Assembly (NCBI GenBank): GCA_963663405.2
Contig: CAXXSM010000041.1
Span: 1 to 64,000 of the forward strand
DNA: 64,000 bases
Direction: 5' to 3'
DNA from: a bacterium
GTDB lineage: Bacteria > Hinthialibacterota > Hinthialibacteria > Hinthialibacterales > Hinthialibacteraceae
The first letter of the stretch is position 1. Every line of letters starts with the position of its first letter. Positions 9,418 through 42,581 of the stretch are shown here, in pieces. The notes beneath the pieces were generated by a model. It did no database searches and had not been told where the DNA came from. It saw only the letters and a program-made list of their open reading frames with translations. The position numbers and the translations under genes were made by a program.

Positions 9418-11426
9418 GTGAGACAAATACGAATTGAGAAATCGTTGAACGTTTTTTTTCTACTCTTTCTTTTTCTACTGTATCCGATAGCAATCTGGCC
9501 GGATGTTGTTATCAATGAGATCAACTATCATCCACCGGACGACGCGCTTGAAGAATTTATTGAACTCTACAATCCAACGGATCAAGAGATCAATCTCGCT
9601 GGTTATTCCTTTTCAGAAGGCGTTCAATTTTCGTTCTCTCCGTTCGATGTGATTCCACCCAAAGGTTATCTCATCCTCGTTCAACGGCCTGAGGATGTGA
9701 GATGGAGTCACTTCCAAAATCGAATTGTTGGGCCTTATCGCGGAAAACTCGCGAACGAGGGGGAACGGATAACGTTAGTTAATAATGAAGGGGAAATTGT
9801 TGAGTCTGTATATTATTTAGATCAGGCGCCCTGGCCGCTTGGAGCGGATGGGTATGGGGCGTCATTGGAGCGGATTCATCCAGACGCGCCTGCGTATGAT
9901 TTCCATTCCTGGAGACTTTCTCGTTCTACTGGCGGTTCTCCACTGATTCAAAATTCAGTCTATGGCTTTCCTCCTGGACCCGCCCTGCGCGGTATTCGCT
10001 TCACACCGGAACGGCCACGCTCTACGGAATCCACGCAAGTAGAAGTTTTCTTGGATATGGCGGATCAGATCGAGCAAGTAAATCTTTGGGTTCTGCCTAT
10101 GACGGAAACCGCAATTGGGGAAACGTTTGCGATTCCCCTAATCGGTGAGGGATCGAACGAAATTGCCGTATATAAAGGGGAAATTCCTCCGTTCTCTTCC
10201 GAAACTCTCGTTCGAGTGCGAAGCGAGATTCTGCGAACGGATGGGCATGGATTATATTGGCCCGACCGGTTGGAACCGCGTCCTTTTGAATCCTATTTCA
10301 TCTACGATATGAATATCCCCGCCGCGCTTCCAATTCTCTGGCTCTTTGATGGTCCGGTTCCCAATGAATCTGAACATGTCAGGCGGACCGGCGTTGTGAT
10401 TCAGCCCTCTCCAAATTCAATGGTTCAAGTGTTCGATGGCGCCATTGTGGAACCTTCCCGGTCCGGGCAGAAAATCCATTTTCTCAAGGGGGAAGAATAC
10501 GAAGGAAATCGCACGTGGAATCTGCTTTTCCCACATACGCCGGAAATGGGAACCGAAGCGCCCCCACCTCATAGCACCGCCGGTCCAATGACTCCTCATT
10601 TAGAACGGTTGGGATATCAGCTTTACAGCGATTTTGGAGTCCTCTCCCTTGGAACCAGCTGGCATCGCGTGATCGAGCGCGGCAGGCATACGCAGCGCCT
10701 TGTCATTCAACAACCAAACGAAAACTTTCTGGCTCTGAATGGCCGTGATCCAGATGGGGATATCTATAAATTACAGTATGAGAATTGGATTAAGAAAACA
10801 AATCTTGATGAGGGAAGAGAAGAGTTAGAGGCTTTGCTTTGTGTTTTAGAACTGGAAGATCCTGAATTGCGCGGCGCTGGAATGAGGAATTTCTTGGATA
10901 TTCCGGAGATTACCTCCTATGAAGTGGTAACTGTGCTTATCAGTAATTGGGATGGGTTATGGAATAACTTTTTTCTCTATTACGCGCCACCTCCTGTTGA
11001 TCGATGGGAATGCATCCTTGGGATTTAGATCAGACCTGGGGATTTGCGGGTGTGTATGTCAGCATGTTGTATGACATGCCAGTTACATTTCCCATTGACG
11101 GCGTTTCGCGGTTGAGCAAACCACCCGGCCCATTATCCCGTCCCTTTCATCTGGATGAGGAACTAAATCAGCTCTATTTAGATAAAATGCGTGAAGCGCT
11201 GAATGATCAATTCTCTATTGAACGTTTACAAGAAATCCTAATCGAATCCAAAACTCCTTTGTTGGAAGATTTAGACCTTTTGGAAGAATATACGGGTAGA
11301 CCTCGCATGGTTCTGCGCCAGCAGATTGAGGACGCATACAAATATGTTGCTGAATTTATGGAACTTAGGCATGATTATTTAAATGGGATTCTCAATACAA
11401 TGATCGATGATTGGACTCTTTATTAA
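9418..11426 (+). CDS. Lamin-tail-domain + CotH kinase family secreted protein (frameshift near 11020 joins ORFs 9418-11028 and 11004-11426)
   Basis: VVINEINYHP..EFIELYN (LTD); ISNWDG..NNFFLY..RWEC+PWDLDQTWG (CotH) split across two frames; ends IDDWTLY*. Confidence 0.85.
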
Positions 11427-12713
11427 ATGTTTGAATTAAGAAAGGCATATCGTGTGATGTGTTTGATTTTATCGTTCACGATTTGGATAATCGGATCGAT
11501 TCTCCCCAGTTGGGGGAGTGAATTGGATTCAGTAACGATTCCGATATCCGGCCTCGCAAATGACGCCGTTCAATTGGAAATGGAGCCAATCCAGGCTGGC
11601 ACGTTTTTAATGGGCCGTATCTCTGGTGACAATGCGCATGATTATGACGAAGATCCCCAGCATTCTGTAACTCTCACTCGTTCTTTCTATATTGGAAAAT
11701 ACGAAATTACCCAAGCGCAATGGGAAGCGGTCATGGGGAATCAGCCCTCCCGTTTCACCGGGCTGAACCGCCCTGTTGAGTGTGTAAACTGGTATGACGC
11801 GGCGCGTTTTTGCAATGCGTTAAGCGAATCCATTGGATGGGAGCCGGTAATATCAGAAACGAATTGGAAAATCAACGTCGAACTGGGAGGAATCCGCCTC
11901 CCCACCGAAGCGGAATGGGAATACGCCTGCCGGGCGGGAGGGGAGACCGTCTACTCATGGGGCAATGACGCCGCGAGCGCAGTCATCGATCAATACGCAT
12001 GGTATTGGGACAATAGCGGAGCTGTGACGCATGATGTGGGCGCCAAACTGCCTAACGCGTGGGGACTGCACGATCTTAGCGGTAATGTATGGGAGTGGTG
12101 CTGTGACAGGACCGATTCGTTTGGCCGGTATCCAACTTCCGCCGTCGATCCCTTGAATCAATCCACTGCTCTTCCATACCGACCGGGCAGGGGAGGCAGT
12201 TGGTTTAATGGCGCCGAAGCGTGCCGATCCTCCAACCGTGACCGGGGTGATCCTGACAGTTTTAATAGTTTTACTGGATTTCGTATCTGCTTTACATATA
12301 TTCAGCAATCCAGTTCAACAAACTCAGGCCCGATCGTCACCATCACGGATGACGTTCATCATATGGTTGACTTGGCGAACGGACAGGATTTCGATGAAGA
12401 ACAATCCCGCGAACTCGTCATCCGGTGGAATCTCGATCCGGAAGTCGTTGATTTTACCGATATTAAAGACGTACACATCTATACGCGAATCGATAATTCA
12501 GAAGACTATTCCTATCTAGGCCGGACAGGTAATGGAGTGGCGAAACTGTTAGTCTGGAAAGCGAATCAACCCAACATCGAATCACAATTTTCAAACGGCC
12601 CAGAATTCGGCCGATCATACCAATTCCGAATCTTCGCATTAACAAAATCAGGAATCCCCATTGCGCATGGCCCATTCGATTGTGTGGGGAGTGTAGAGTT
12701 CTTGGAACGATGA
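11427..12713 (+). CDS. FGE/SUMF1 (formylglycine-generating enzyme-like) domain protein with extra C-terminal domain
   Basis: GTFLMG, YEITQAQW, RLPTEAEWEYACRAG, NAWGLHDLSGNVWEW, RGGSW, GFR. Confidence 0.9.
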   Translation: MFELRKAYRVMCLILSFTIWIIGSILPSWGSELDSVTIPISGLANDAVQLEMEPIQAGTFLMGRISGDNAHDYDEDPQHSVTLTRSFYIGKYEITQAQWEAVMGNQPSRFTGLNRPVECVNWYDAARFCNALSESIGWEPVISETNWKINVELGGIRLPTEAEWEYACRAGGETVYSWGNDAASAVIDQYAWYWDNSGAVTHDVGAKLPNAWGLHDLSGNVWEWCCDRTDSFGRYPTSAVDPLNQSTALPYRPGRGGSWFNGAEACRSSNRDRGDPDSFNSFTGFRICFTYIQQSSSTNSGPIVTITDDVHHMVDLANGQDFDEEQSRELVIRWNLDPEVVDFTDIKDVHIYTRIDNSEDYSYLGRTGNGVAKLLVWKANQPNIESQFSNGPEFGRSYQFRIFALTKSGIPIAHGPFDCVGSVEFLER

Positions 12714-13417
12714 TTATTAATAGTTTTTTTTGATTTGTATAAAACATAAATCCTCAAACTATCTCCAAACCATCTTCATTTTATCTCCAAAGTCTAAATA
12801 TGGAACTCATCTTGTTGTTAAACTCGCCTTGACTTTTAAGAAAATGTATCATAAATTCGAAAAAAGGTAGAGTGATTTTCTGTATGCAATAATTGTTATG
12901 ATATTGCAATACTGCCAGTAATTTTGACAATCAATATTAGGGCACATCACACAATAAAATTATATCCATCATTGAGGAATTTGAGAATTATATATTGTAA
13001 TTATGCAATCAATAAATTTGGACATAGAATTTCAACTAAAAATATGGACAAAAATAATTGTTTTCATATCAACAAATGTTAATTCTTAGGTATATAACAA
13101 ATGAAACAAAACAGATCCCAAACAGAGAATGATTTAACACAAGCCAGGTCATTAATTCAAAAATGCTTGGATAATCAAGATCATTACCTGGATTTAGGTA
13201 ACTGTGGTATTACTGACTTAAATGACCTACCGGAACTCTTTGAATGCACCCATCTAAAAACTTTGGTTTTAAGCCATGAATATTGGGATTATGAGAAAAA
13301 GGAATGGATAAAAAGTCGTAATATAGGATTCGCAAACAGAATAGAAACAATCCCTTCAGATATTTCTATTCTACAAAATTTAAGGAATTTGTTTCTTAGT
13401 GATACTGGAATCACCAA

Positions 13418-14730
13418 TCTGAGTGTCTTAGAACACCTCACCGGATTACAAACGTTATACCTTAGTAATACTGGACTCACGGATCTGAGTGGCTTAGAAC
13501 ACCTCACCGGATTACAAACGTTAGACCTTAGTAATACTGGACTCACGGATCTGAGTGGCTTAGAACACCTCACCGGATTACAAACGTTAGACCTTAGTAA
13601 TACTGGACTCACGGATCTGAGTGGCTTAGAACACCTCACCGGATTACAAACGTTATACCTTAGTAATACTGGACTCACGGATCTGAGTGGCTTAGAACAC
13701 CTCACCGGATTACAAACGTTAGACCTTGGTTTTAATCAGATTTCCGATCTGAGTGTCTTAGAACACCTCACCGGATTACAAACGTTATACCTTAGTGACA
13801 ATCAGATTTCCGATCTGAGTGTCTTAGAACACCTCACCGGATTACAAACGTTAGACCTTAGTGACAATCAGATTTCCGATCTGAGTGTCTTAGAACACCT
13901 CACCGGATTACAAACGTTAGACCTTAGTGACAATCAGATTTCCGATCTGAGTGGCTTAGAACACCTCACCGGATTACAAACGTTGACCTTAGTGACAATC
14001 AGATTTCCGATCTGAGTGGCTTAGAACACCTCACCGGATTACAAACGTTAGACCTTCGTAATACTGGACTCACGGATCTGAGTGTCTTAGAACACCTCAC
14101 CGGATTACAAACGTTAGACCTTCGTTTTAATAAGATTTCCGATCTGAGTGTCTTAGAACACCTCACCGGATTACAAACGTTAGACCTTCGTTCCAATCAG
14201 ATTTCCGATCTGAGTGTCTTAGAACACCTCACCGGATTACAAACGTTAGACCTTCGTTCCAATCAGATTTCCGATCTGAGTGTCTTAGAACACCTCACCG
14301 GATTACAAACGTTAGACCTTAGTTCCAATCAGATTTCCGATCTGAGTGTCTTAGAACACCTCACCGGATTACAAACGTTATACCTTAGTTCCAATCAGAT
14401 TTCCGATCTGAGTGTCTTAGAACACCTCACCGGATTACAAACGTTAGACCTTGGTTTTAATAAGATTTCCGATCTGAGTGTCTTAGAACACCTCACCGGA
14501 TTACAAACGTTAGACCTTGGTTTTAATAAGATTTCCGATCTGAGTGTCTTAGAACACCTCACCGGATTACAAACGTTAGACCTTAGTTCCAATCAGATTT
14601 CCGATCTGAGTGTCTTAGAACACCTCACCAGATTACAAACGTTATACCTTAGTGACAATCAGATTTCCGATCTGAGTGGCTTAGCACACCTCACCGGATT
14701 ACAAACGTTAGACCTTAGATCAAATCAAAT
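13418..14730 (+). repeat. Tandem array of 20 near-identical 66-bp repeats encoding 22-aa LRRs
   Basis: Unit ttagaacacctcaccggattacaaacgtta(g/t)acctt(a/g/c)gt...gatctgagtg(t/g)c recurs every 66 bp; 20 copies counted. Confidence 0.95.
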
Positions 14731-16772
14731 TAAGGAAATACCATTATTCATATTTCAGTTAGGTATGGAGATAAAATTAGTAGAACATGTTTCTGAAGAT
14801 TTGTGCCTTTATAACAATCCAATTGAATCGCCACCAATGGAGATTCTCCGTCAAGGAGAGCAAGCGGTACTCAACTACTTCCAGGAAATCGAAGCCCAGG
14901 GTGTGGACCAGCTGTTTGAAGCCAAACTGCTAATCGTTGGTGAGGGCGGGGCCGGAAAAACTAGCCTGCTTCGCCGCATGTTCTTTCCCAAAATGAACCT
15001 GCCCACCGAAGACGAAAGCACCCACGGTATCGACATCCATACACATAAATTTCCGATATTCGAAGGACGACGCGATTTCAGGCTCAACACGTGGGACTTC
15101 GGTGGCCAGCAGATTTATCACGCCACGCATCAGTTCTTCTTGACAAAGCGTTCGTTGTACGTGCTGGTCGATGATACGCGGAGGAATAGCCGATCGATCC
15201 ATGACGACGATTTCAAGTTCTGGCTGGAGGTCGTCGATACGCTCAGTGAAAGCAGCCCGCTGTTGATCTTTCAAAACGAGAAAAGCGGGCGAAGCAAACC
15301 AATCGATAAAGCAGGCATTATAAAACACTTTCCCAACGTGCAAGGATTCCATCGCGGTAACCTGGAACATCCGGACGCCGCGGATAGTCTGCGCAAAGCG
15401 GTAGAAGATTCCGCTCAGCATTTGTCTCACATTGGAGAGAATGTACCGGCTAAGTGGATCGCGATTCGTAGGGATTTGGAAAACTTGGCGCAAACAAAAC
15501 CACACATCTCAATAGACAAATATTTCGAGGTCTATGACGATCACCTAGGACTAGATCCCAACAAGGCGCTGCGCCTGAGTCAGTACCTGCATGACCTTGG
15601 TGTGTTCCTGCATTTTCAACAATCGAGGGAGCTGCGTCGTACGGTGTTCCTACAGAACCAGTGGGTGACGAAAGCAGTGTTCCTAATACTTGACGACGAA
15701 CTTGTGAAATCCCAACAGGGCCGGTTCACGCTGGCCGACTGCGACCGCCTGTGGTCCGGAAAGGGCTATGCGGACAAGGATGTGGAATTGCGAACTCTGA
15801 TGGTCCTATTCGAACTCTGTTACCGGCTTCCGGATATGGACAAGGAGACGTGGCTGGTTCCGCAGCACCTTTTACCGTCAACGCCGCCGGAACTGAGCAA
15901 CTGGGCTAAGCCCGGTGACCTGATGCTGACGTACCGCTACGAGTTCCTGCCCAAGGGCCTGGTGAGTCGGCTGATCGTGCGGTTGCACCGTTTCGTGAAG
16001 GATACGAATTTATGCTGGTCGCATGGCGCTTTATTCGAGCATGGCGAGTCACAAGCGCTGGTGGAGACAACCACGAGTGGCAACGAAATCACACTCCGGA
16101 GCCGCGGTCCAGAACAGAATGAACTGATGAGTGTCATCGCGAGCGACCTGGATGCCCTGAACGACAGTTTTCCGGGACTCAAAGAGAAAGTTGGGAAGTG
16201 GGTACCATGCACCTGTAAAACGTGTGCGAGCCTGAATGAACCAGCGATGTTCGAACATAAGGAACTGATCGACCGCAAGAGTCGAGGCAAGCTGACAATC
16301 GAGTGTCCAAAACCGCCTGATTATGCAGATGTCAGCGTACTAGAATTACTCGACGGAATGAATCTGAAGCAATGGCTCGCGCGAGCGAGTAAAGATCTAA
16401 TCCAAAACGACGGTGATTCGACAACATCTATCGAAACGGATCAATCTGTTGTGAATGACGGTGTTGTCATCAAGACTATCCGGATCTTCCTGGCGTCATC
16501 ATCTGAACTTCGTAAGGATCGCGACGCTTTCGATCTGTATTTCAGGCAACAGAACGACCGCCTGCGAAAACAGGGCTTGTACCTTGAGATCGTCCGCTGG
16601 GAGGATTTTCTGGATGCGATGTCTTACACGCAACTGCAGGATGAATACAACAAGGAAATCCGCAATTGCGACATGTTCGTCAGCCTATTTAAGACAAAGA
16701 CAGGTAAGTACACAGAGGAAGAATTTGACGTCGCCCACGAGACCTTCAAGGAAACCGGAAAACCATTAATCT

Positions 16773-19103
16773 CAGACCTCCTGAGCTGGGCCGGGGGATT
16801 CCGTAGAGTTGATGATTTTGGCAAGATACCTTTTTGGGGATAAAAATGATCGATCCAAAAAGGAGCCCAGTTGATGCCACAAGGATTCTTACCCCACTTT
16901 GCCGATGTCGAGGAAGGCTACATCACCGATGTACTCTCGTACCGGAAGCAGGACGGTTCGGTCTATTATTTTCATGGCGCCTTTCCTATTTACACGCATC
17001 CAGAAACCGATCAAAAGAGTTTCCGTTTGATTACCAGTCAGTTTATCGTGAACGGGCAATGCACACAGATGGAGATCGTTCGAGCGTTTGGCGTGAGCGT
17101 GATCAGTGTGAAGCGGTGGGTCAAGAAATACCGGGAAGGTGGAGCGGCGGCGTTTTTTGAAACGCCTCGAACACGAGGCGCGCATGTCTTGACGAAAGAC
17201 GTTCTCCAGCAAGCGCAAGAGTTCTTGAACGAGGGGCTCTCTCGAGCGGAGATCGCCGATCAGTTGGGCCTTAAGCGGAATACGTTGAATAAGGCGATCC
17301 AAGCCGGCCGCCTGGTGGAGCCGCTAAAAAAAACGATGCCGGAGGCCGCCCGAAAAGCGAGCGAAGCGTAGAAGACAGCCAAGCGGCGATGGGGATGGGC
17401 TGTACGCGAATGGTGGAGCGGGTCTGCGCGGCGACCGGGCAGTTGGAGGAAGCCCCGACTCGTTTCGAGACGGAATTGGATGTGGCGCAAGGCGGCGTGT
17501 TATGGGCGATGCCCGCGTTACTCGCCAACGGGCTGCTGAAGAATGTCTCGAAGAACTTTTCTCTCCCCAAAGGATTTTACAGTTGCGTCCACATTTTTAT
17601 TGTGTTGGCTTTCATGGCGTTGACGCGGATCAAAACGCCAGAACAGTTGCGCTATCATCCCGCGGGGGAAGGGGGCAAGTTACTGGGCTTAGATCGAATT
17701 CCCGAAGTGCGGACCCTGCGGGAAAAAATCAAAATTCTCGCCCAACCAGACCAGATCAAAGAATGGGGGGACGAATTGTCCCGGGAGTGGATGGAGGCGG
17801 ATCCGGACGCGGCGGGCGTTTTATATGTCGATGGTCATGTCCGCGTCTATCACGGTTCGCAAACGAAACTGCCCCGCCGCTATGTCGCGCGTCAACGATT
17901 ATGTTTGCGTGGACTCACCGACTATTGGGTGAACGACGGCGAAGGCCGCCCCTTCTTTGTGGTGAGCACTCCATTCACCACCGGCTTGTTGGATCGGCTC
18001 AAACAAGACATTGTTCCACAGTTGCTAAAAGATGTTCCCCATCAACCCACGGCCGAAAACCTTGAATCCAATCCCTATCTCCACCGGTTCGTCCTGGTGT
18101 TCGACCGGGAAGGCTATAGCCCCGGATTCTTCGCTCAGATGTGGGATTCGCGGATCGCGTGTCAAACGTACCGCAAGTTTCAGGGAGAAGATTGGCCAGT
18201 TTCAGAATTCGAGACAGTGAATGTGCGTCTGCCTGGTGGGCATGAATCGCCGATGCGCTTGGCCGAGAGAGGCGTCTTTCTGGGAGGAAAAATCTGGGTG
18301 CGGGAGATTCGCAAGTTGGGGGATACAGGGCATCAAACCGCTGTGATCAGTACGGATTATACATCGGATGCGAGTCAACTGGCGGCGCATATGTTCGCGC
18401 GTTGGTGTCAGGAAAACTTCTTTCGGTACATGATGGAACACTTTCATTTAGATGGACTTATCGGGTATGAAACGGTCTTGCCGGATGAGACGGTGAAAGT
18501 GGTGAATCCGGCCTATCGGAAATTGGAAAGCCAGATCAAAAGCCTGGCGGGGAAAAAGACTCGAAAGCAAGCGGAATTCGGCGCCCTTGTCCTAAAGGAA
18601 TCCTCCGATCCGAAAGAGATCGAATGCTATGAAATCCAGAAAGGCGCCCTCCTTGAAGAGATCGGAGGGATGGAGAAACAACTCGATGAGTTCAAGCGGA
18701 GCCGGAAGCAAACGAAAAAGCATATCGCGTTTGTGGACTTGCCAGAGGAGGCAAAATTTCACCAATTGGCTCCAGCGAAGAAACAATTCATGGATACGAT
18801 TCGAATGATTGCGTATCGGGCGGAAACGGCGATGGTGGCAATCCTGCGGGAGGTGCTGAGCCGGGGAGACGATGCGCGTTCGTTGGCGCGGGAAATCATG
18901 ACCACTGAAGCGGATCTGATTCCCGATGAAAAAAATGAGACTCTCACCATTCGACTCCATCACTTGACCAACCGCCTTTCCGATCAAGCCGCCCGCCATT
19001 TGGCCGCTCAATTGAATGAAACCGAAACCATTTATCCTGGCACGAATCTACGTCTCGTTTACCAATTGGTGTCAGATCAATATCCCCCAGATCAGGAGGC
19101 CTG
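16773..19103 (+). mobile_element. Complete insertion sequence (~2331 bp) with DDE transposase, imperfect 18-bp terminal inverted repeats and 5-bp target duplication AATCT
   Basis: Left end cagacctcctgagctggg versus reverse complement of right end caggcctcctgatctggg (16/18); AATCT at 16768-16772 and 19104-19108; removing it restores CCA TTA ATC TAC ACG (PLIYT) in the host gene. Confidence 0.93.
16871..17371 (+). CDS. IS OrfA, helix-turn-helix DNA-binding part of the transposase
   Basis: EIVRAFGVSVISVKRWVKKYREGG and SRAEIADQLGLKRNTLNKAI HTH motifs; RBS AGGAG; A8 run at 17326-17333. Confidence 0.85.
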   Translation: MMPQGFLPHFADVEEGYITDVLSYRKQDGSVYYFHGAFPIYTHPETDQKSFRLITSQFIVNGQCTQMEIVRAFGVSVISVKRWVKKYREGGAAAFFETPRTRGAHVLTKDVLQQAQEFLNEGLSRAEIADQLGLKRNTLNKAIQAGRLVEPLKKTMPEAARKASEA

Positions 19104-19104
19104 A
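17389..19104 (+). CDS. IS OrfB, DDE transposase catalytic part (probably fused to OrfA by a -1 frameshift)
   Basis: LYVDGH...LVFDREG...RWCQENFFRY DDE triad; lies in the -1 frame relative to OrfA and is open back to the A8 run. Confidence 0.88.
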   Translation: MGMGCTRMVERVCAATGQLEEAPTRFETELDVAQGGVLWAMPALLANGLLKNVSKNFSLPKGFYSCVHIFIVLAFMALTRIKTPEQLRYHPAGEGGKLLGLDRIPEVRTLREKIKILAQPDQIKEWGDELSREWMEADPDAAGVLYVDGHVRVYHGSQTKLPRRYVARQRLCLRGLTDYWVNDGEGRPFFVVSTPFTTGLLDRLKQDIVPQLLKDVPHQPTAENLESNPYLHRFVLVFDREGYSPGFFAQMWDSRIACQTYRKFQGEDWPVSEFETVNVRLPGGHESPMRLAERGVFLGGKIWVREIRKLGDTGHQTAVISTDYTSDASQLAAHMFARWCQENFFRYMMEHFHLDGLIGYETVLPDETVKVVNPAYRKLESQIKSLAGKKTRKQAEFGALVLKESSDPKEIECYEIQKGALLEEIGGMEKQLDEFKRSRKQTKKHIAFVDLPEEAKFHQLAPAKKQFMDTIRMIAYRAETAMVAILREVLSRGDDARSLAREIMTTEADLIPDEKNETLTIRLHHLTNRLSDQAARHLAAQLNETETIYPGTNLRLVYQLVSDQYPPDQEA

Positions 19105-19318
19105 ATCTACACGTATTTCAAGAAGACCACCGTCACGACTAACGCAAGAAAACGTAACGATCTGAATTCACTGTGGGACTTTCAGGAGAAACTCAAAGAT
19201 CTTGGACATTTCCAAACGGAGTACACATCAATCGCCGACCTGCAGAAACAATTCCGGGATCAACTGGATAAGCTACGGATGAGCGGTAAACTGTGAGAGG
19301 CGCAACTCATCCCTATCG

Positions 19319-30207: not shown

Positions 30208-31681
30208 ATGAATCCTGGATTTGTCATCTGTATTGTTCTTGGTTATTTTGGTATTCTATTATTCATCTCGCATTTCACATCGAAAGATACGAGTTCCAAA
30301 GTTTTTTTCATCGCGAATCGCAACTCGCATTGGTTCTTAGTTTCTTTTGGTATGATCGGCGCCGCGTTATCGGGTATCTCGTATGTATCCGTCCCCGGTG
30401 AAGTGGCCGATACCCAATTCGCATATTTTCAACTTGTGATAGGATACGCTCTGGGGATTATTCTCATTGCGGTGATTTTACTGCCTTTATATTATCGGTT
30501 GAATCTAGTTTCCATCTATACATTTCTTGAACGGCGGTTTGGCTTTTGGTCCTATAAAACCGGCGCAGTCTCTTTCTTCATCGCCCAAAGCTTATCGGCG
30601 GCGTTTCGGCTTTATTTAATGGCCAGTGTGCTTCAAATTTCCTTTTTCGATTCCTATCATATACCATTTTCCGTAACCGTTTTGATAACGATTTTATTAA
30701 TCTGGCTATATACGTTCCGGGCGGGGATCAAAACAATTGTCTATACGGATATTCTGCAAACTATATTTCTATTACTGGCTGTGGCGATCAGCATTTATGT
30801 CATCGGAAAAGAACTGCATTTGTCATTTGCGGGGCATATCAATAATTTTTTAGAAACCAGCCAGTCCAGTATGTTCGTCTGGGATTGGAAATCCAAACAG
30901 AACTTCTTCAAGTATCTATTCACAGGCGCTTTTTTAACGATCGTGACGAACGGCCTCGATCAAAGCATGATGCAGAAACATCTGACCTGCCGGACGCTTA
31001 AGGAATCGCAGAAGAATATGTTTTGTTTCAGCGGGATGTTACTTCTCGCGAATCTATTGATCTTATACGCGGGCCTTCTTCTCGTGCAGTACGCCCAGGC
31101 CGCGAACATTTGCCATTCCAGAAAACCGGGATGATCTATATCCTATGCTGGCGATACACCACTTGAGTTTCTCGGCGGGATTCTTTTTCTTAATCGGTAT
31201 CTCCGCCGCCGCGTATTCCAGCGCTGATTCAGCTCTAACGGCGTTGACCACATCATTTTGCATCGATTTTTTGGGAGACTCGGAACAGAACAGAACGAGT
31301 GAGAAAACACGCTTTAAGATACATCTAGGAATTGCGCTCTATTTATATGTACTGATTGTCGTTTTTCATCAATTCAAAGACCAAAGTATTATCAGCGCTT
31401 TTATTGGCGCGTCTGGTTATACATATGGACCATTATTAGGATTGTTTGCGTTTGGTATGTGTACAAAAATGCAAATTCGAGATCGTTGGGTTCCATGGAT
31501 CGCCGCCGCATCACCAACGATCTCTTATCTTTTTTACTTATATTCCGAACGCTTGCTTTGGGGATATCAATTTGGTTACGAAATCTTAATCTTGAATGCC
31601 GCTCTCATGTGTGCGGGATTATGGATTGTACGGAATAAGAAGAAAGCGGAAGTGAAACCAGGAATGGAGGATGGATCATGA
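30208..31681 (+). CDS. Sodium:solute symporter (frameshift near 31130)
   Basis: FFIANRNSHW, SIYTFLERRFG, GIKTIVYTDILQ, DQSMMQKHL, AAAYSSADSALTAL across two frames. Confidence 0.88.
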
Positions 31682-34670
31682 TACGAACAGTAAGCTATTT
31701 TTCGATCGGGATTTTTTTCGCAATGACAGTGTTTTCATCCACTACTTTTGCCGTGGATTTCGGAGTTGGTCTGGAGGATGGATTCCAAAATCCCCCCCTT
31801 ATTGCGAAACCCCGCGCGTATTGGGTGTGGTTGAATGGTAACTTTGATCTGGATCAATTGACCCGAGACCTAGAGGAGATGAAAGACAAAGGCGTAGGCG
31901 GTTTGGAAGTGTTTGACATCGGCGCCAGAGATCCGAAGGGTGTCGTGCCCGATGGACCTGCGTTTATGGGACCTGAATCGGCCAACGCCGTCGCGCACGC
32001 TGTCCGGGAAGCGCAGCGTTTGGGTTTGGAAATAGGATTGATCACATCCAGCAGTTGGAACGCCGGGGGGCCCTGGATTACTCCCCAGCACAGCGCAAAA
32101 GGAATTTTTCAATCCAAAATTCGTGTCCAAGGCCCCCGCCGCGTTTCCGAGCGGCTTTCCCTTACCCAAAATTCCTCAGAAGGCTCCAAAAGGAGCCGAT
32201 GGATTGCCAGCGTATTTCAAAGAGATAGCTGTGCTGGCGATTCCTTCAAAAGAAGGGAACGTAATCAGCGATTTCAGTTCCATCATAGATCTGACGGGAC
32301 GTTGTGATGAAACAGGACGGCTGATCTGGGATGCGCCAAGAGGGGAATGGGACGTGCTGCGGTTGGTCTGCGCGTGCACGGGTGAAACACTAGTGCTCCC
32401 CAGTCCTAATTCTACTGGTCTCATCATCGATCACTGTCGATCCCGCCGCGACGGAGACGCATTTCGAATTTCATGATCGATGTCATGGAGAAAGAATTGG
32501 GAAATTTGGGCGATTCGGCTCTCACATACATGTATCTGCCTAGTTATGAAGTCGCCAGTTATGAAAAAGAGAAGGGGTTGGTTTGGACACCATTGCTGCG
32601 CGAGGAATTCCGAACGCGGCGCGGTTACGATCCAGCCGTTTATCTCCCCATTCTATTAGGATACACAGCGAAACAAACAGAAATCGTGGACCGCTTTCTA
32701 TTTGATTTTAACATGACATTGTCGGATTTAATCATTGATGAGCATTATAGGAAAGCGCGAGAACTCTGCAATCAACATGGGATCAAACTTTGTTCGGAAG
32801 CGGGTGGGCCGGGGCAGCCTCTTCACAATTGTCCGTTTGAAGCGCTGCGGGCTCTCGGCGCGTTGGATGTGCCGCGCGGGTGAATTCTGGTACGATCACC
32901 AAAACTTTGATGAAAACGGCGTGGACATTATGTGGTTAGTGAAAGAGATCGCCTGCGCTTCCCATATTTATGGTAAAACGATTGTGGATGGAGAGGCCGT
33001 TTACGAGCTGGTATCACTGGCAGAATGGCCCCTTTTGTCTTGAAACCGCTGGCCGATCAGGCGATGTGCGGCGGATATAAATCGTTTTACATTCCATACC
33101 GGCGCGCCACAATCCACCGGAAGCGGGCAAACCGGGATGTGGCGTATCACGCCGGCACCCACATGAACGTGAACCGCGCCTGGTGGCCGAAGGAGCAAAG
33201 GATTCATCAATTATCTCGGTCGTTCCTGTTTTCTTCTCCAGCAAGGCCGCTTCGTCGGCGATCTCTGTTATTACTACGGCGATGACGCGCCGAACTTCGT
33301 CAAACCCAAATTTGTCGATCCTTCGTTGGGCTATGGATACGATTACGATGTGGTGAATTCCGAAGTGATATTAACCCGTATGAGCGTTAAGGATGGATGG
33401 ATTGTATTACCAGATGGAATGCGTTATGCGCTGTTGGTTTTACCGGAGCGTGACGACATCAATCTGGATGTGTTGAAGAAACTGGCCTGCGTTAGTACGC
33501 GCTGGCGCCACAGTGGTTGGCCCCAAACCTAAACGCTCAAATGGCCTGAATAATTATTTGTGGCGCGATGAAGAAATTCGCCGTCTGGCCGATCAATTAT
33601 GGGGCGCTTGTGATGGTGTTCAAGTGAAGGAAAACGAATATGGAAAAGGGAAGATTGTGTGGGGGCGGCCGTTGTGCGAGTTGATGATGGAACGAGGAAT
33701 CGGCCCTGATTTTACATTCACAAGCGATACTAAAAACTGCGATCTTGATTTCATCCATCGTAAAACCAAGAACGAAGATATCTATTTTATTTATAATAAA
33801 ACGGCGGAATGGATTGAAGCGGACTGCGCGTTTCGCGTCTCGAATAAAATGCCTGAATTATGGGATCCCGATACTGGCTCCATTCGAAAAATGGCCGTTT
33901 TTGAAAATGAAAAAGCCATAACAAAACTGACATTACAACTGCCTCCATCAGGTTCCATTTTTGTTGTTTTCCGCGAAGAAACCTATCGGGATCATTTCAC
34001 TGCTTTCGAATCTGGTCCAAAGACTTATCAAGCGCAATTGGAAGAAAACAAGCAGATTGAACTACGCGTCTGTGAAGGAGGAGAATACATTTTCGCGGAT
34101 TCAAAGGGAAACGGTCAAGGCTGCACATTCACTGCGTTACCGGATCCGATTGAATTGGATGGGCCTTGGACAGTAACATTTCCCACCGGTTGGGGCGCGC
34201 CCCCGGAAGCGGTCTTTCCAGAGTTGGTCTCATGGACTGATCGTGAAGAGGAAGGGATCAAATATTTTTCGGGGATCGCGGCCTATCATAAAGAATTTTA
34301 TATTCCTGAGCAATGGATTGCGCCTGACCGCCAACTGGAATTGGATTTAGGCGCCGTCAAGGATATCGCGGATATAAACGTGAACGGTCAGCCTCTTGGG
34401 ATTCTTTGGAAACCACCGTTCCGGGTTGATATCACGAGCGCTGTCAAAGCGGGGAAAAACGAACTTTTAATCGAAATCGCTAATCAATGGTCTAACCGCC
34501 TTGTGGGCGATTCCCAATTGCCCGAAGAAAAACGATACACACATACGAACATCACATACTCTATCATGTATAAACGGACCTGGGAAAAAACACCTCTGCA
34601 GGAATCCGGTTTATTGGGTCCGGTCCGAATCCATCCAGCCAGAACGATATTACTCAACATTTCTGAATGA
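31678..34670 (+). CDS. GH106 alpha-L-rhamnosidase-like glycoside hydrolase with multiple frameshifts
   Basis: FQNPP..AKPRAYWVWLNGN, DLEEMKDKGVGG, KEIACASHIYGK, YDYDVVN, WDPDTG, LDLGAVKDIA, SGLLGPV spread over about 7 frame segments. Confidence 0.8.
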
Positions 34671-37797: not shown

Positions 37798-38210
37798 AAA
37801 ATAAAGGTATTGATTGATGGTTGCTAACTCATGATTTTACAAATACTTGTAAGAGGAAAATGATGAGGGATTGAATGTAATACAATAATGCAGACCGTTC
37901 ATGGCTCGATCAATATCAAACAAACTGTTCAAATAAGAACATTCTTCTATCGCCGCTGTTTTCCAGGAACAATAATTAAATATTTCGGGGAATAAGTGGT
38001 TTCATTGTCAAAAGATTACCTTCTATAACTTGAATCTCATGCAGACTTTACACAATAAAAGGTTCTTCCATCACTCATAAAGTGGAGAGAGACATTTATC
38101 AAAAAAAGGTCTTTGTCTCGATAAACTGAATTTTAATGAAATTTTTCTTGACAATTCAAGAGCCTTTAGTATATATTTGCGATATATCCTCTGATTGCGG
38201 CGTTGTTTTT

Positions 38211-41200
38211 ATGATTGATACAAACGATTTGTATGCAAGATATAGGAAAGCCAACAATTTTCTTTTGCGGGAGAATGATGGTTTTCTTATCAATATGCCG
38301 TCTCTGTTTCGAATATCGCTCGTCGAAAAATGCAACTCCCACTGTTCGTTGTGTTATCGAGAATCTCTTTCGAAAGAGCGATTTTCAGAACTGGATCAGG
38401 AAGCGTTTTCTGTGGCTGTTTACAAAAAATTGGCCCAGGACGCTTTTCCTTATGCGGACAAAGTTGTAATTGGTTTAGCCGGTGAGCCCACTCTCCATCC
38501 CCAGTTTGGCGAATTTCTAGAGATTACCCATTCCTATGGCGTATATCTTGAGGTTTATACCAATGGTTTGTTGCTGAACCGGCCCTCGATAGTGGAGCCG
38601 ATTGTTAACTTTGCGGATTGTTTAACGCTTTCAATGGATGGCGCGACGCAGGATACACTCAACATCACACGCGGCGGCGCTTCGCTTCACAAAATCATTC
38701 AAAATGTTGAACGATTGCAAGATCTAAAGGCGGCTCTGGACCGCTCCAATCCGCTTCAACTTTCATTTCATATCACCATGAGGCGTTCCAATGTTCATGA
38801 GTTAAAACAAATCGTTGCATTAGCGCATGATATGGGAGTGACCAAAATCAGCGCGGCGCATGCCGCGATCCACGATCCGAAAGATCGGGATGAGTCACTA
38901 TTCTCCATGAAAGAGCGATCGGATCAATGCTGCGCCGATGCGATAGAACAAGCAATACAGTTTGGGATTACTCCCGATTTTCCACCTCTGTTTCGAGACA
39001 GCAATTACGCGGAACCGAATCCTCACTTTGACTATTGCTATCAATTGGCCCATGAAGCCTTGATTTTTGGGAACGGGGATGTCGCCGCCTGCTGTCATAC
39101 CGCCGCCCGGTTTAATATGGTGATGGGGAATTTGAAAACAGAGAATTTTCCATCCATCTGGTATGGCCGGCAATATGAATATCTGTGGCAGTCTATCCAG
39201 AATAAAAATTATAATCCCGCTTGCAAGGATTGCGCCAACAACTCAACGTTTATATCCGTGAATGATGATTGGACCGTGGAAGAATATGCGCGGTCTAATA
39301 CTATGAATCTGCGGAAACGATCCATTCTCTCACTCTTTCAATACAATGCGGATTTATTCGAAAAACAGAAACGGATTTATGACCGGATCGTGCCTCTTGA
39401 GAATCGAATTGACCAAGAACTCGCCTCGTTACGGAGATATGAATTATTATTTCCACAGCAATATCATCTAACGAATCATATTCAGAGTCAGATTACTTCA
39501 AGAATCCATCAATTCGTTGTCATCGCCAAACACAGGAAAGAAGGTGAGAGCCTGCGCTCGATGAACCGGGCGCTCTACGAGCGAGGAAGCGAATTCCAAG
39601 GCAATTATCCACTGCATCTTGAAGTCTCGATCATGGCTGGATGCGATATCCGCTGCTTCATGTGCAGTATTGCGCAACTCTCAGAAGAAGAAAACAAAGA
39701 ACTGATGAAACGGCGCATGAGCTGGGAAACCTTTCAGATTCTTGAACGGGATCTGTTCCCCTATGCGGAAAGTATATTTTTCGGGATCGGTGGAGAAGCG
39801 ATGCTGCATCCCGATTTCTGCAAATTTGTCCATTGCGCTTCAACTGCGGGATTAAAAGTCAATCTAACAACAAATGGGATGTCTCTGGTTTCTCCAAAAA
39901 TCGCCCACGTTTGTGTGGATCATGTCAATGATCTGACCTTATCCATCGATGGAGCCACTCCGGAAACGTTTGAACGTATCCGCGTTGGCGCCCGATGGGA
40001 TAAATTACTCAAAGGAATTGAGCGGCTGAACGCGTTAAAAGAGGCTTCCAATCACTCCTCGTTGAAACTGTCGATCAATATCGCCTTGATGCGGCAAAAC
40101 ATTGAGGAACTCCCTGATTTGGTCGAACTGGCGCATCAATGGGGAGTCAAGAGAATCATGGCCGAACATTTCCTTTCGATGGCGCCTGAATTAGAATCAC
40201 AATCCCTCTTCTCCACACCCGAAAAATCGGATCGATATATCCTCGAAGCCATCGCTGTCGCGGAGCCGTATGGAATCCATATGGAAGTTCCAGATTTATT
40301 TTGCAAAGAAAACACACCGGAAATGAAGCATGGAAATATACGCAACGTGCGGCCCATTGAGCGAGAACCCGAGCAACCGCATTGTACATTATTAAATTAT
40401 TCAACGGTCATTTATCCCAGCGGTATGGTCACGTCATGCGGGCATCCCGATGCGATGTATCTATTTCCTGTCGGGAATGTCAATGAACAACCGTTTCATG
40501 AAATTTGGTTTGGAGAACGGTATCAAGCGTTACGTGTTTCCGCTTCAAAAAATAAGATTCCTGAAACCTGCTTAAACTGTTCCATGTCCGGCCGGTCGGA
40601 TGGCGGTTTGCCTACACACAAGCGGGATGATCCACGGATAGAAGAACAGCTTAAGGCTCGATCCTATTCAAAACGGTTTATGCTTCGTCATATCGAGTTT
40701 CAAAGCGAATTGATTTATCGAAATTCACTTCTCACTCATCATCGCAAAACATTAGAAGATATTTATCAGCAAATACAAATCCACCGTCAAAATCTGATTT
40801 CTTTGCGCGTAAAAGAACCGGAAAGCAGGAGGGAAAAACAAATGGAACGTTTGGTTCAAAAGATCCTTAATGTCTTTAACCGGATAAAAAAAAGAATAAA
40901 AAATATAATGCTCGATCAAAACAAATCAACCGCATTCGCCTCCCAAATCGAATGGGTGACACCACCACCTGACTCTGTGATGAAAGATTCCTCTTTCTCA
41001 TTTGATGTCCGCGTAAAAAATGTTGGTCAGGAAGTATGGAAAGATGGCGCAAGCGAAACGGATCGTTCCGTCATGATTGGTGGCGGTTTTTATCATGAAA
41101 ATATATTAATTGCTCATTTTGGTGGATGGGGACAATTGCCTCATCCCCTAAAACCTGCTCAAACGGCCACTGTCTCGATCCAAAGCAACACCTTTTCATT

Positions 41201-42581
41201 ACCCTTGGGAGAAATGATTCTGCGTGTCGAATGCGTTCAACTGGGCAGTGGTTTTTTCAGCGAGTGGGGTTCGCCTGCATTAGAACATAAAATGTCAATC
41301 ATTATCACGAGTGACAGCGAAAATCTATGGCAGCGTGGATTGCGATCCTGCACAAATATGTGGACACCGACGGAAGGTTTCTTTCAGCATGAAAATTATA
41401 CATATCCGTTGTTTATTACAAAAAGCGATAAAGCTAGAGTCTATGATTTACAGAACAAGGAGTACTTGGATTATATAATCGGTTGGGGGACAGCGACGTT
41501 GGGTTATAACCATCCCGAAATTCAGAACGCGATCCGCCGCTGGCTTTCTGTCGGTCCTACTTTGCCATTGACGCATCCCTTACAAGTCGAAGTGGCCGAG
41601 AAATTATCTTCCATCTTGCCCTGCGGAGAGCGTGTGCTGTTTGGTAAAAATGGTTCGGATGTCTTGGAGGCGGCGATCCGCACCGCTCGCTCCTATCGTG
41701 CGAAAGACCGCGTACTATGTTGTGGGTATCATGGTTTTCACGATTGGTTCATTGGAACTGTCGCCGGTGTGAAGGGCGTTCCCCGCGCGGTGCGGGAACT
41801 TGTCGAGATGTTCCCCTATGGAGATTTGGAGTATTTGAAAAATCGTCTTGACCGGGCGGATGATGTGGCCGCCATTGTGATTGAACCTGTGTTTCAGAAT
41901 TGTGAACCCACGGAGTATTTACAAACGATACGCATGTGGACCGAGGAACGGGATATTCCATTGATCTTCGATGAAATCATGTCGGCGTTCCGTATCGCCA
42001 ATGGGGGCGCGCAGGAAAAATACGGCGTGATTCCTGACATGGTAGCGGTAGGAAAAGGGATCGCCAACGGAATGCCGCTGGCCGCATTGGCGGGCAAACG
42101 GAAGATTATGGATTACTGCTTTGATGTTGGCTATGGGCCGACATTTCAAGGAGAAGTCTATTCTCTCGCCGCCGCTTCTACAGCCATTGACATTTACCAG
42201 CGTGAACCGGTTTGTCAGTACATCACTAGTATTGCCATCCAATTACAAAATGGTTTTTTAGAAAAAGCGAGACAACATGAGATTGAGGTGGAGTTGCATG
42301 GAGTACCTACACGTCAGATGGTTCATTTTCATGAAATTAATGGCTACTCGTCCGCGATGATTCGTACCTTCTTTGTGCAGGAATTGCTGCATAGAAATAT
42401 TCTTTGCGCGGGTCATTTCCTCACATGCTATGCGCATACGGATGATGATATCTCCTATACGATCAATACGTTTGATGAAGTCTTGGCAAAATTGAAGAAA
42501 ATACTGATGTCCAAAACGCTTGAACAAAACATACATATTCCCGTTCACCAATTGTTTTTGGGAGAAAAATTGGATGCGTGA
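38211..42581 (+). CDS. Fusion of two radical SAM-SPASM/twitch modules, an Ig-like domain and a class III PLP aminotransferase
   Basis: CNSHCSLC and CDIRCFMC (CX3CX2C), GEPTLHP/GEAMLHP; auxiliary Cys CYQL..ACCH..CKDC and CTLL..SCGH..CLNC; VRVKNVGQEVW Ig-like; FDEIMSAFR..GKGIANGMP. Confidence 0.9.
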   Translation: MIDTNDLYARYRKANNFLLRENDGFLINMPSLFRISLVEKCNSHCSLCYRESLSKERFSELDQEAFSVAVYKKLAQDAFPYADKVVIGLAGEPTLHPQFGEFLEITHSYGVYLEVYTNGLLLNRPSIVEPIVNFADCLTLSMDGATQDTLNITRGGASLHKIIQNVERLQDLKAALDRSNPLQLSFHITMRRSNVHELKQIVALAHDMGVTKISAAHAAIHDPKDRDESLFSMKERSDQCCADAIEQAIQFGITPDFPPLFRDSNYAEPNPHFDYCYQLAHEALIFGNGDVAACCHTAARFNMVMGNLKTENFPSIWYGRQYEYLWQSIQNKNYNPACKDCANNSTFISVNDDWTVEEYARSNTMNLRKRSILSLFQYNADLFEKQKRIYDRIVPLENRIDQELASLRRYELLFPQQYHLTNHIQSQITSRIHQFVVIAKHRKEGESLRSMNRALYERGSEFQGNYPLHLEVSIMAGCDIRCFMCSIAQLSEEENKELMKRRMSWETFQILERDLFPYAESIFFGIGGEAMLHPDFCKFVHCASTAGLKVNLTTNGMSLVSPKIAHVCVDHVNDLTLSIDGATPETFERIRVGARWDKLLKGIERLNALKEASNHSSLKLSINIALMRQNIEELPDLVELAHQWGVKRIMAEHFLSMAPELESQSLFSTPEKSDRYILEAIAVAEPYGIHMEVPDLFCKENTPEMKHGNIRNVRPIEREPEQPHCTLLNYSTVIYPSGMVTSCGHPDAMYLFPVGNVNEQPFHEIWFGERYQALRVSASKNKIPETCLNCSMSGRSDGGLPTHKRDDPRIEEQLKARSYSKRFMLRHIEFQSELIYRNSLLTHHRKTLEDIYQQIQIHRQNLISLRVKEPESRREKQMERLVQKILNVFNRIKKRIKNIMLDQNKSTAFASQIEWVTPPPDSVMKDSSFSFDVRVKNVGQEVWKDGASETDRSVMIGGGFYHENILIAHFGGWGQLPHPLKPAQTATVSIQSNTFSLPLGEMILRVECVQLGSGFFSEWGSPALEHKMSIIITSDSENLWQRGLRSCTNMWTPTEGFFQHENYTYPLFITKSDKARVYDLQNKEYLDYIIGWGTATLGYNHPEIQNAIRRWLSVGPTLPLTHPLQVEVAEKLSSILPCGERVLFGKNGSDVLEAAIRTARSYRAKDRVLCCGYHGFHDWFIGTVAGVKGVPRAVRELVEMFPYGDLEYLKNRLDRADDVAAIVIEPVFQNCEPTEYLQTIRMWTEERDIPLIFDEIMSAFRIANGGAQEKYGVIPDMVAVGKGIANGMPLAALAGKRKIMDYCFDVGYGPTFQGEVYSLAAASTAIDIYQREPVCQYITSIAIQLQNGFLEKARQHEIEVELHGVPTRQMVHFHEINGYSSAMIRTFFVQELLHRNILCAGHFLTCYAHTDDDISYTINTFDEVLAKLKKILMSKTLEQNIHIPVHQLFLGEKLDA

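Follow-up and report, generated by a model that had tools for sequence, protein, structure and literature searches.

Likely concerted evolution and diversification of a leucine-rich repeat sensor array in a twice-disrupted bacterial Roco gene

How can a protein repeat be kept almost letter for letter identical in twenty copies while the residues most likely to make contacts differ from copy to copy? The question is raised by a leucine-rich repeat (LRR) array in a 64,000-nucleotide stretch of DNA (hereafter, the window; positions 1 to 64,000 of contig CAXXSM010000041.1, assembly GCA_963663405.2) from a bacterium of the lineage Hinthialibacterota. The genome is a metagenome-assembled genome (MAG) of 8.44 Mb in 170 contigs and is 82% complete; the best named homologues of its Amt protein belong to MAGs labelled Omnitrophota or Hinthialibacter (68-76%). 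An earlier note, made from the DNA letters alone, had described the array and proposed that it belongs to a receptor whose specificity is rewritten by recombination between repeats. Here, we place the array in a bacterial Roco gene, as its N-terminal LRR domain, and argue that it probably reflects concerted evolution and diversification of a conflict-system sensor with a DUF4062/TIR-like (Toll/interleukin-1 receptor-like) output domain. In this genome, the gene itself is most likely a recent pseudogene.

With Tandem Repeats Finder (TRF), a single array was detected at 13417-14718; it has a period of 66, 19.7 copies, 94% matches, and a score of 1978. It has the highest score among the arrays with in-frame periods in the 8.44-Mb assembly, and is the first of the 23 that passed the filter. 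Units delimited by a 7-nt anchor motif start at positions from 13419 to 14672 and are spaced by 66 bp throughout, with the sole exception of 65 bp between units 9 and 10. Their consensus is LS[VG]LEHLTGLQTL[YD]L[SGR][NDSF][TN][GQK][LI][TS]D. Across units 1-19, 51 of the 66 nucleotide columns are invariant; the 15 that vary are restricted to codons 3, 9, 14, and 16-21, and the other 13 codons are invariant. All 13 alternative codon alleles in these units change the residue, and no position has two synonymous codons; synonymous changes (TCA, CAA, AGA) occur only in unit 20. The 19 units comprise 14 distinct haplotypes. With 94% matches and 51 invariant columns, the units lie above the approximately 80% identity within one gene expected of repeats with high internal conservation (HIC). 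The array is therefore real, and the earlier note was right about the 20 copies of a 66-bp unit (anchored at 13419-14737), about the invariant scaffold with synonymous drift only in the last copy, and about every allele that it listed (Y/D, S/G/R, N/D/S/F, TGLT versus NQIS/NKIS, and G/V). It had missed the deletion in unit 9, the membership of the array in a Roco gene with a C-terminal domain, the insertion of a mobile element, and a degenerate unit that precedes the array.

In the LRR pattern LxxLxLxxNxL, the hot sites are Y/D at x5, S/G/R at x7, N/D/S/F at x8, and G/Q/K at x10, which correspond to unit positions 14, 16, 17, and 19. An AlphaFold2 model of window positions 13985-14884, computed with no alignment (mean predicted local distance difference test score [pLDDT] of 85.9; predicted template-modelling score [pTM] of 0.85), is an LRR solenoid with a 22-residue rhythm, a strand at unit positions 12-14 (T, L, Y/D), and a short convex helix at positions 2-6 (S, V/G, L, E, H). 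In a Foldseek search, the model matches the LRRs of the Roco protein CtRoco (TMq of 0.83, 43% identity) and of internalin A (InlA; TMq of ~0.80). The model supports a location of x5, x7, x8, and x10 on the concave face and at the start of the ascending loop. The array would thus also have the few hypervariable binding-surface positions typical of HIC repeats, at unit positions 14, 16, 17, and 19, with V/G, T/N, and L/I excepted. T/N and L/I vary in concert and define two LRR subtypes, xNTGLT and xxNQIS; the degenerate leading unit already has the xNTGLT form.

In a compatibility test of site pairs, 35 of the 105 pairs are incompatible, and every one of them sets nt 8, 40, or 46 against the block of nt 49-63. 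The block itself has five haplotypes and no internal incompatibility. Each of nt 8, 40, and 46 occurs on at least three block types, and the other 48 scaffold columns hold one private change in 19 units. Because the three sites are spread over block types while the scaffold is nearly unchanged, random recurrent mutation is unlikely, and either recombination inside the unit or selection on particular sites has to be invoked. The order of the units is locally clustered: the mean distance between neighbours is 3.5 bases, compared to 6.84 ± 0.91 in 20000 shuffles (P = 1e-4), with runs of alike units (1-4, 6-9, 12-13, and 16-17) and identical adjacent pairs (2-3, 7-8, 12-13, and 16-17). Since neighbouring units are alike, local tandem duplication appears to be the main generator of the array. 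The earlier suggestion that alleles are reassorted between copies therefore holds for the three single-base sites, which are combined with five blocks, but not for the block, which is non-recombining, nor for the unit order. Furthermore, in codons 18-21 the founder subtypes are distinct at 8 of 12 bases, yet no base of the scaffold separates them. Such a contrast demands that the scaffold be homogenised across subtypes, which is concerted evolution.

The same positions are hot in relatives of the gene. TRF found 66-bp arrays in eight of 15 related Roco loci (matches of 92% in L005, 95% in L010, 96% in L009, 89% in L084, 84% in L085, 81% in L087, 75% in L007, and 72% in L006), 69-bp arrays in three (L002, L003, and L014), and none in four, in three of which (L004, L086, and L088) the contig ends just upstream of Roc. 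The scaffold differs gene by gene among these arrays. Residues at unit positions 12, 14, 16, 17, and 19 vary in all four 66-bp arrays examined (L005, L084, L085, and the window array), and pN/pS at the x-sites is 2.64 in L005 and 2.52 in L084, compared to 0.04 and 0.18, respectively, in the rest of the unit. A protein search with the Roc, COR, and C-terminal part of the gene (the chassis) yielded 6296 proteins at E <= 1e-30 among the 8000 scored. The closest relatives of this part are 73-78% identical, and their sources include cyanobacteria, sulfur-oxidising symbionts, and Desulfuromonas. All 13 closest chassis relatives inspected have a different N-cap and belong to another LRR class, with 25-residue units (LGQLTSLxLxxNxVGxAGARAIAEH). 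Among 13 chassis relatives at 72-89% identity, the unit motif occurs 1-15 times. In 12 arrays of chassis relatives, the four most variable positions include x8 in all 12, x5 in 10, x7 in eight, and x10 in six. Independent relatives thus share the hot positions although the scaffold has been homogenised separately in each, a pattern that marks concerted evolution with diversification.

Five of the 20 best chassis homologues (P0004, P0015, P0018, P0019, and P0022) are only 791-819 aa long and have no Pfam LRR match; P0004 starts directly at the final degenerate LRR. A frameshift, gene calling, or an assembly break may have split off the arrays of these five.

A single close ortholog pair gives an indication of the rate of change. 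The chassis of L084 and L085 are identical at 683 of 733 residues (94%; pS of 0.115 and pN of 0.034), and their arrays, compared over six LRR units aligned from the C-cap, at 107 of 132. At the x-sites, pN is 0.307 and pS is 0.396; in the scaffold, they are 0.038 and 0.068, the latter below the pS of the chassis. Judging from these values, the two arrays appear to change faster than the chassis, by unit replacement and not by point substitution alone.

What kind of protein carries the array? Taken together, the two pieces into which the gene is broken encode an N-cap, the LRR array, Roc, COR-A, COR-B, and a C-terminal domain (Table 1). Pfam LRR_4 matches both pieces (E = 1.2e-62 and 2.9e-55), as does LRR_8. 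Among solved structures, the Chlorobium tepidum Roco protein (CtRoco, 6hlu; E = 2.6e-120) is the best match; after it come internalin A, which matches the LRRs, and LRRK2, which matches Roc-COR. As in other Roco proteins, Roc lies directly before COR, and the LRRs are N-terminal, which is the prokaryotic arrangement. The P-loop GEGGAGKT and the motif DFGGQ of Roc are present. In the G4 region of Roc (~15340-15365), the window gene and its 73-78% identical relatives (P0004-P0024) have NEKS/NEKG where CtRoco has NKID, possibly an altered nucleotide-binding motif. No Pfam match to the STAND NTPase of NLRs was found in the gene; its switch is Roc-COR, and it works like an NLR but is not one. The earlier idea of the array as a receptor finds a place here, as the sensor of a receptor-like NTPase-switch protein in which LRRs and Roc-COR are combined with a TIR-like domain.

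The sensor and the chassis resemble two different Roco lineages. We compared the gene with two sets of relatives, set A (P0127, P0133, P0164, P0138, P0142, and P0199) and set B (P0004-P0023). The N-cap is 52-59% identical to the N-termini of P0127, P0133, and P0164 of set A and has no detectable similarity to set B, and the LRR part is 59-68% identical to set A and 31-44%, over parts, to set B. Conversely, Roc-COR is 24-38% identical to set A and 73-80% to set B, and the C-terminal domain has no hit in set A and is 81-85% identical to set B. Similarity switches from set A to set B in the cap and linker preceding Roc. By these identities, the gene is a mosaic: its sensor module of 22-aa units sits on a chassis from a lineage whose other members have 25-aa LRRs.

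The assignment of the C-terminal output domain is tentative. Its ~165-aa module is widespread, usually at the N-terminus of other, unrelated proteins, which are 45-64% identical to the window. The intact copy in L005, modelled with 29 homologues (pLDDT of 87.8), has a beta-alpha sandwich fold, and its Foldseek matches include TIR domains (SPARTA TIR-APAZ, RRS1, RPS4, AbTir, and L6; E from 1e-4 to 1e-3, TM of ~0.5-0.6) and, in the same range of E-values, the CMP N-glycosidase BcmB and nucleoside deoxyribosyltransferase. Among PADLOC models, the L005 domain matches the N-terminus of the candidate PDC-S60 (1.5e-12). DUF4062 clusters account for 25 of the 30 Atlas feature matches of the domain, and one of these clusters is labelled DUF4062/ThsB TIR-like. 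Some chassis relatives, which cover only 82-86% of the query, carry TIR_2 (PF13676) instead. These matches hint at a DUF4062-like domain with a TIR-like fold, a putative effector. The gene thus has, C-terminal to COR, a domain of the variable effector repertoire that marks AP-GTPase conflict systems.

Table 1. Features of the disrupted Roco gene and of the insertion sequence (IS) element within it. HTH, helix-turn-helix; ORF, open reading frame; TSD, target-site duplication.
Feature	Position in window	Strand	Details
Start codon and N-terminal cap region of Roco gene	13101..13352	+	ORF 13101..14015
Degenerate leading LRR unit (PSDISILQNLRNLFLSDTGITN)	13353..13418	+	'xTGxT' subtype; cut in unit register
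20 near-identical LRR units	13419..14737	+	66 bp = 22 aa each; unit 9 = 65 bp
1-bp deletion in unit 9 (TTA to TT)	13984..13985	+	-1 frameshift
LRR C-cap and linker (IPLFIFQLGMEI...NNPIESPPMEILRQGEQAVLNYFQEIE)	14738..14923	+	similarity to set-B chassis starts here
Roc GTPase domain	14924..15280	+	Pfam Roc E = 1.6e-21; residues 314-432 of P0001
COR-A	15446..15871	+	Pfam E = 4.9e-34
COR-B	15920..16357	+	Pfam E = 7.7e-29
First part of DUF4062-like (TIR-like fold) putative domain	16481..16771	+	up to IS; Pfam DUF4062 E = 0.0096, below cut-off
IS element, 2333 bp	16772..19104	+	terminal inverted repeats TCAGACCTCCTGA.../...TCAGGAGGCCTGA; interrupts output domain
HTH ORF of IS	16871-17371	+	
Transposase_29 ORF of IS	17389-19104	+	Pfam E = 2.2e-206
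Second TSD and displaced Roco 3' end (YTYFKK...LRMSGKL)	19105..19296	+	second TSD 19105-19107; stop 19294-19296

Two lesions disrupt the gene. With one base missing at 13985, the ORF that starts at 13101 stops at 14015, ten codons on, and the frame entered by the deletion is open over 13985-16843. Programmed ribosomal frameshifting at 13985 was considered and rejected, as no slippery run is present in ...CAAACGTTGACC... (by inspection only). The second disruption is an IS element flanked by the 3-bp TSD ATC (16769-16771 and 19105-19107); 3-bp TSDs flank other copies too. Matches to 11 other contigs cover the final 72-77 nt of the apparent ORF, which are the left end of the IS. In total, the assembly holds 12 IS copies that are 92.9-99.9% identical, the others being on contigs C27, C133, C122, C143, C118, C53, C155, C22, C112, C164, and C38; with 12 copies so nearly identical, transposition looks recent or ongoing. 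Behind the IS, the frame of the gene resumes, and the tail matches the C-termini of intact relatives. An approximately 90%-identical relative in the public run X1 crosses the insertion site without the IS and has an uninterrupted C-terminal domain, and a contig of run X2 bridges the left IS junction by 31 nt. The IS insertion is thus well supported; the deletion is a candidate, read from the assembly consensus.

The X1 relative also bears on how long the gene was maintained. Its contig starts at 14688, inside unit 20, and so breaks at its own array. Over window positions 14688-16772, it lacks 3 bp at 15066 and is diverged over 15435-15554. Within 14765-15157, 19 of the 32 listed differences from the window fall at third codon positions (binomial P = 0.002), a count drawn from 36 listed of 181 differences. 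Such an excess argues for purifying selection until recently, and the gene in this genome is most likely a recent pseudogene.

Other genes in the window are also broken. A gene for an LTD-CotH protein is broken into two ORFs that overlap, 9418-11028 (Pfam CotH positions 84-206) and 11004-11426 (positions 206-322), as if by a frameshift near 11000-11010. At 30208-34670, a sodium:solute symporter (SSF) gene is split at 31134/31145, and a GH106 alpha-L-rhamnosidase gene, its middle part absent, is present as three fragments that match profile positions 1-133, 293-391, and 623-739. The region around the Roco gene appears to be decaying and IS-rich.

The explanation that we favour, and consider probable, is concerted evolution together with diversification of a conflict-system sensor. 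The array would be the ligand-sensing N-terminal domain of an AP-GTPase protein. Local tandem duplication, with unequal crossing-over or conversion, would keep the 20 units near-identical, and differences would persist, and in the family accumulate, at x5, x7, x8, and x10. Gain, loss, and exchange of units would then alter the binding surface and leave the solenoid unharmed, and whole sensor modules would be exchanged between Roco chassis. Binding to the LRRs would act through the GTPase switch on the TIR-like effector and lead to defence. A much stronger version, in which bacterial Roco sensors are recombination-driven, population-level 'anticipatory' receptors whose units and whole sensor modules are exchanged so quickly that arrays differ between cells of one species, is a long shot, and so is its boldest form, in which a dedicated mechanism, and not ordinary homologous recombination, promotes array change and the unit-9 deletion is a by-product. 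The earlier proposal of a receptor whose specificity is rewritten by recombination between repeats is upheld in part: the array is the sensor of a receptor-like switch protein, and its hot positions are x positions of the concave face and ascending loop. We found no evidence of ongoing or somatic rewriting, the unit order looks like local duplication, and the gene is disrupted twice.

A number of observations weigh against concerted evolution with diversification. The earlier note had called the variation almost purely non-synonymous, which is correct for codon alleles (13 of 13) but not by the Nei-Gojobori (NG86) method, which gives a pN/pS of 0.87 for units 1-19 as a whole and of 0.86 for the x-sites. 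Multi-base codon pairs such as AAT/GAC, CTC/ATT, and ACG/TCC include silent steps. Seven of the 13 alternative codon alleles are single-base changes, and about three in four random changes alter the residue anyway. Positive selection (dN/dS above 1) at the hot positions was accordingly not detected in the window array, given its x-site pN/pS of 0.86. Among the relatives, L085 shows no excess (x-site pN/pS of 0.70, and 0.30 in the rest of the unit), and in the L084/L085 comparison the x-site pS is high as well (ratio of 0.78), which fits unit replacement and is not a dN/dS signal. Nor is the variation confined to the ligand-binding face, as the earlier note had it: x5, x7, x8, and x10 are in or beside the concave strand of the model, but V/G (codon 3) is in its convex helix, and T/N (codon 18, the Asn-ladder) and L/I (codon 20, a core position) are structural and not on the surface. 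Moreover, the concave placement is derived from the secondary structure of the model and the textbook LRR register, not from coordinates.

Further points of this kind concern the effector, the relatives, and the state of the gene. The Pfam DUF4062 match is below the cut-off, and the L005 domain matches Ras-like and flavodoxin-like folds at E-values comparable to those of its TIR matches, which leaves the TIR-like assignment weak; P0001, the protein with the Roc domain, has no match among the PADLOC models. A search for an exact 26-mer of the unit scaffold in metagenome contigs gave 0 hits, and the sensor piece P0002, compared with longer proteins, has no near-identical scaffold, its best homologues being 53-63% identical. 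Full-length relatives in the protein scans are 26-45% identical in genome contigs and at most 38% in metagenome contigs. Logan contigs of run X2 cover the flanks and the IS junction, and the array only as short fragments; stretches that lack cover were not counted as evidence. Finally, as the gene is broken, nothing in the window array need be functional now.

A rival explanation is a neutral history, in which a few diverged founders (SNTGLT, SDNQIS, SSNQIS, and GFNQIS/GFNKIS) were very recently amplified by slippage with no selection for diversity and no rewriting of specificity, possibly in a gene that was already dead; the pattern would then consist of variation inherited from the founders and a few point changes. 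The likeness of neighbouring units, the five non-recombining haplotypes of nt 49-63, the pN/pS of 0.87, the double disruption, and the decayed CotH, SSF, and GH106 genes nearby are all in its favour. We nevertheless regard it as rather unlikely, because the x positions are hot in four of four 66-bp arrays and in 12 of 12 arrays of 25-aa units with unrelated scaffolds; founders that differ at 8 of 12 bases in codons 18-21 and nowhere in the scaffold require homogenisation and not mere copying; nt 8, 40, and 46 are each found on at least three block types against one private change in 48 scaffold columns; and the third-position enrichment relative to X1 indicates constraint until recently. Could the pattern instead have been created by the assembly, with unit number, unit order, or the deletion resulting from metagenome repeat assembly or strain mixing, so that the combinatorial pattern is no single true allele? 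The genome is a fragmented, 82%-complete MAG, Logan contigs of the best run cover the array only in fragments (of 54 nt, for example) with a word depth of ~2 in the flanks, the contigs of L009, L010, L084, and X1 (start at 14688) end at arrays, and the unit-9 deletion is known from the assembly only. However, exact repeats within the array reach at most 131 nt, which makes each 132-mer unique, and reads of 150 nt or k = 141 can order the array. The 12 IS copies of 2.3 kb were assembled inside contigs, eight of them at 98% identity or more and without indels relative to the window copy, and like arrays occur in many independent assemblies, including isolates (P0010 from Acaryochloris marina), and in CtRoco crystal structures. 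An assembly artefact is thus an unlikely explanation of the pattern.

Two other explanations concern the mechanism and the role of the array. In the variable lymphocyte receptors (VLRs) of lampreys, the concave face of the LRRs is the variable binding surface, and the receptors are assembled somatically from flanking cassette libraries. The earlier note had pointed out the resemblance to VLRs and to fungal HET WD40/NLR repeats, and a programmed diversification by VLR-like silent cassettes, or by a diversity-generating retroelement that rewrites the array at a high rate, would agree with the spread of the three single-base sites across block types. In a blastn search of the gene against the whole 82%-complete assembly, however, no copy of the unit was found outside the array, and the matches outside contig C41 were only IS ends and one Roc paralog; without a unit copy elsewhere, there is no VLR-like cassette library. 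No reverse transcriptase was found among the 40 window ORFs scanned, and no template copy; the variable bases (T/G, G/A, T/G, and A/G/C) are not adenine-specific; and the unit order is locally clustered. The array thus resembles neither a product of VLR-type somatic assembly nor a retroelement target, and programmed rewriting is hardly credible; of the two likenesses, the one to fungal HIC-type concerted evolution stands, and the one to cassette assembly does not. Alternatively, the gene might encode an 'eukaryote-like' LRR protein for interaction with a host or prey and not an intracellular immune sensor. The LRRs do resemble internalin A (E = 1.8e-64; Foldseek TMq of 0.80), and some close chassis homologues come from the symbionts Thiosymbion and Thiodiazotropha. 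But the N-terminus has no obvious hydrophobic leader (by inspection only), the fusion of the LRRs to Roc-COR and a TIR-like domain is the architecture of a cytoplasmic switch, and the family is found in free-living cyanobacteria, Nitrospira, and Bacteroidota, which makes a role of this kind very improbable.

The rest of the genome holds further proteins with repeats. A second Roco gene, on contig C102 (5050-7752; L003), is apparently intact, with an open frame of 1144 aa and 23-aa LRR units (69 bp x 16.3, 80% matches); its identity to the window Roc-COR is 34%, and its C-terminal region is different. Contig C123 encodes, on the minus strand at 10779-13715 (L164:3780-6716), a TIR-NB-ARC-TPR protein of 978 aa, which is NLR-like in the bacterial manner, with internally conserved TPR units (126 bp x 7.6, 85% matches), and a TPR protein with 144-bp units is encoded on contig C144. 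Elsewhere in the window, an unusual 1481-aa ORF (38136-42581) fuses two radical-SAM/SPASM modules to a class-III aminotransferase domain, and a polyamine cluster (51956-54585) encodes a pyruvoyl-dependent arginine decarboxylase, a deoxyhypusine-synthase-like protein that covers only positions 2-218 of the 288 of the profile, and a member of the arginase/agmatinase family.

How does the array compare with known systems? CtRoco (PDB 6hlu, 5il7, and 8r4b) has the same order of LRR, Roc, and COR, and the match to it spans all three; in the alignment, it also has highly alike 22-aa LRRs. The window gene departs from CtRoco in its additional, putative DUF4062/TIR-like domain, its N-cap, the near-identity of its 20 units, and the disruptions. 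The AP-GTPase(Roc)-COR conflict systems, in the part of their description considered here (Kaur, Iyer, Burroughs, and Aravind 2021, PMC8195603), comprise 'rapidly evolving' N-terminal LRRs, an AP-GTPase, COR, and a variable effector. The effectors listed there include TIR and DRHyd, several paralogs per genome are possible, and LRR-AP-GTPase-COR proteins are predicted to be intracellular counter-invader sensors. The window genome shares with these systems the domain order and, in the gene on C102, the presence of a second, intact Roco; the effector of the window gene differs, being DUF4062-like and not a canonical Pfam TIR. That part of PMC8195603 does not describe unit-level near-identity, hot positions, or sensor-module swapping. 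In the literature, supplementary data not covered, we found no description of codon-level hypervariability of bacterial Roco LRRs, nor of the recurrence of hot positions in two LRR classes or of a Roco sensor swap.

Closer parallels to the behaviour of the units come from eukaryotes. According to the part of PMC13449251 considered here, HIC repeats are found across all domains of life in proteins that resemble NLRs, bacteria and LRR proteins included, and fungal HIC NLRs exchange sensor repeats between genes; the corresponding part of a preprint (bioRxiv 10.1101/2020.01.06.895854) notes HIC repeats in bacterial WD and TPR NLRs and describes prokaryotic NLRs as typically without LRRs. The window array shares with fungal HIC NLR repeats (the WD40, ANK, and TPR repeats of HET-E/NWD proteins) near-identical units with few hypervariable positions on the putative binding surface, and repeat gain, loss, shuffling, and exchange between genes have a counterpart in the Roco family. 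It differs from them in that the switch is a Roc GTPase and not a NACHT/NB-ARC ATPase, the repeats are LRRs, repeat-induced point mutation (RIP) is absent, and dN/dS does not exceed 1 in the window array. Brown-algal LRR-ROCO genes, as portrayed in the part of PMC11378527 considered here (Zambounis 2012 cited there), have shuffled LRR exons and four positively selected concave sites. They share with the window gene the order LRR-ROC-COR and near-identical units, and their selected sites lie at places in LxxLxLxxNxL comparable to its hot positions. The brown-algal units, however, are single exons, for which shuffling or alternative splicing is invoked, whereas the units of the window gene are contiguous in one ORF, and change must therefore come from DNA recombination.

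For this genome, the significance of the locus is more modest, as the gene carries two interruptions and its surroundings are decaying and rich in IS elements. For the family, the recurrence of hot positions and the transfer of a whole sensor module to another chassis support the published prediction that LRR-AP-GTPase-COR proteins are sensors of invaders, and the case points to intact homologues whose specificity is open to testing by unit swaps. With repeats kept identical while the likely contact residues differ, and with hot positions that recur when the scaffold is unrelated and even when the LRRs are of another class, the array provides a clean codon-level example, in a bacterial Roco, of a pattern known from fungal NLRs and brown-algal ROCOs.

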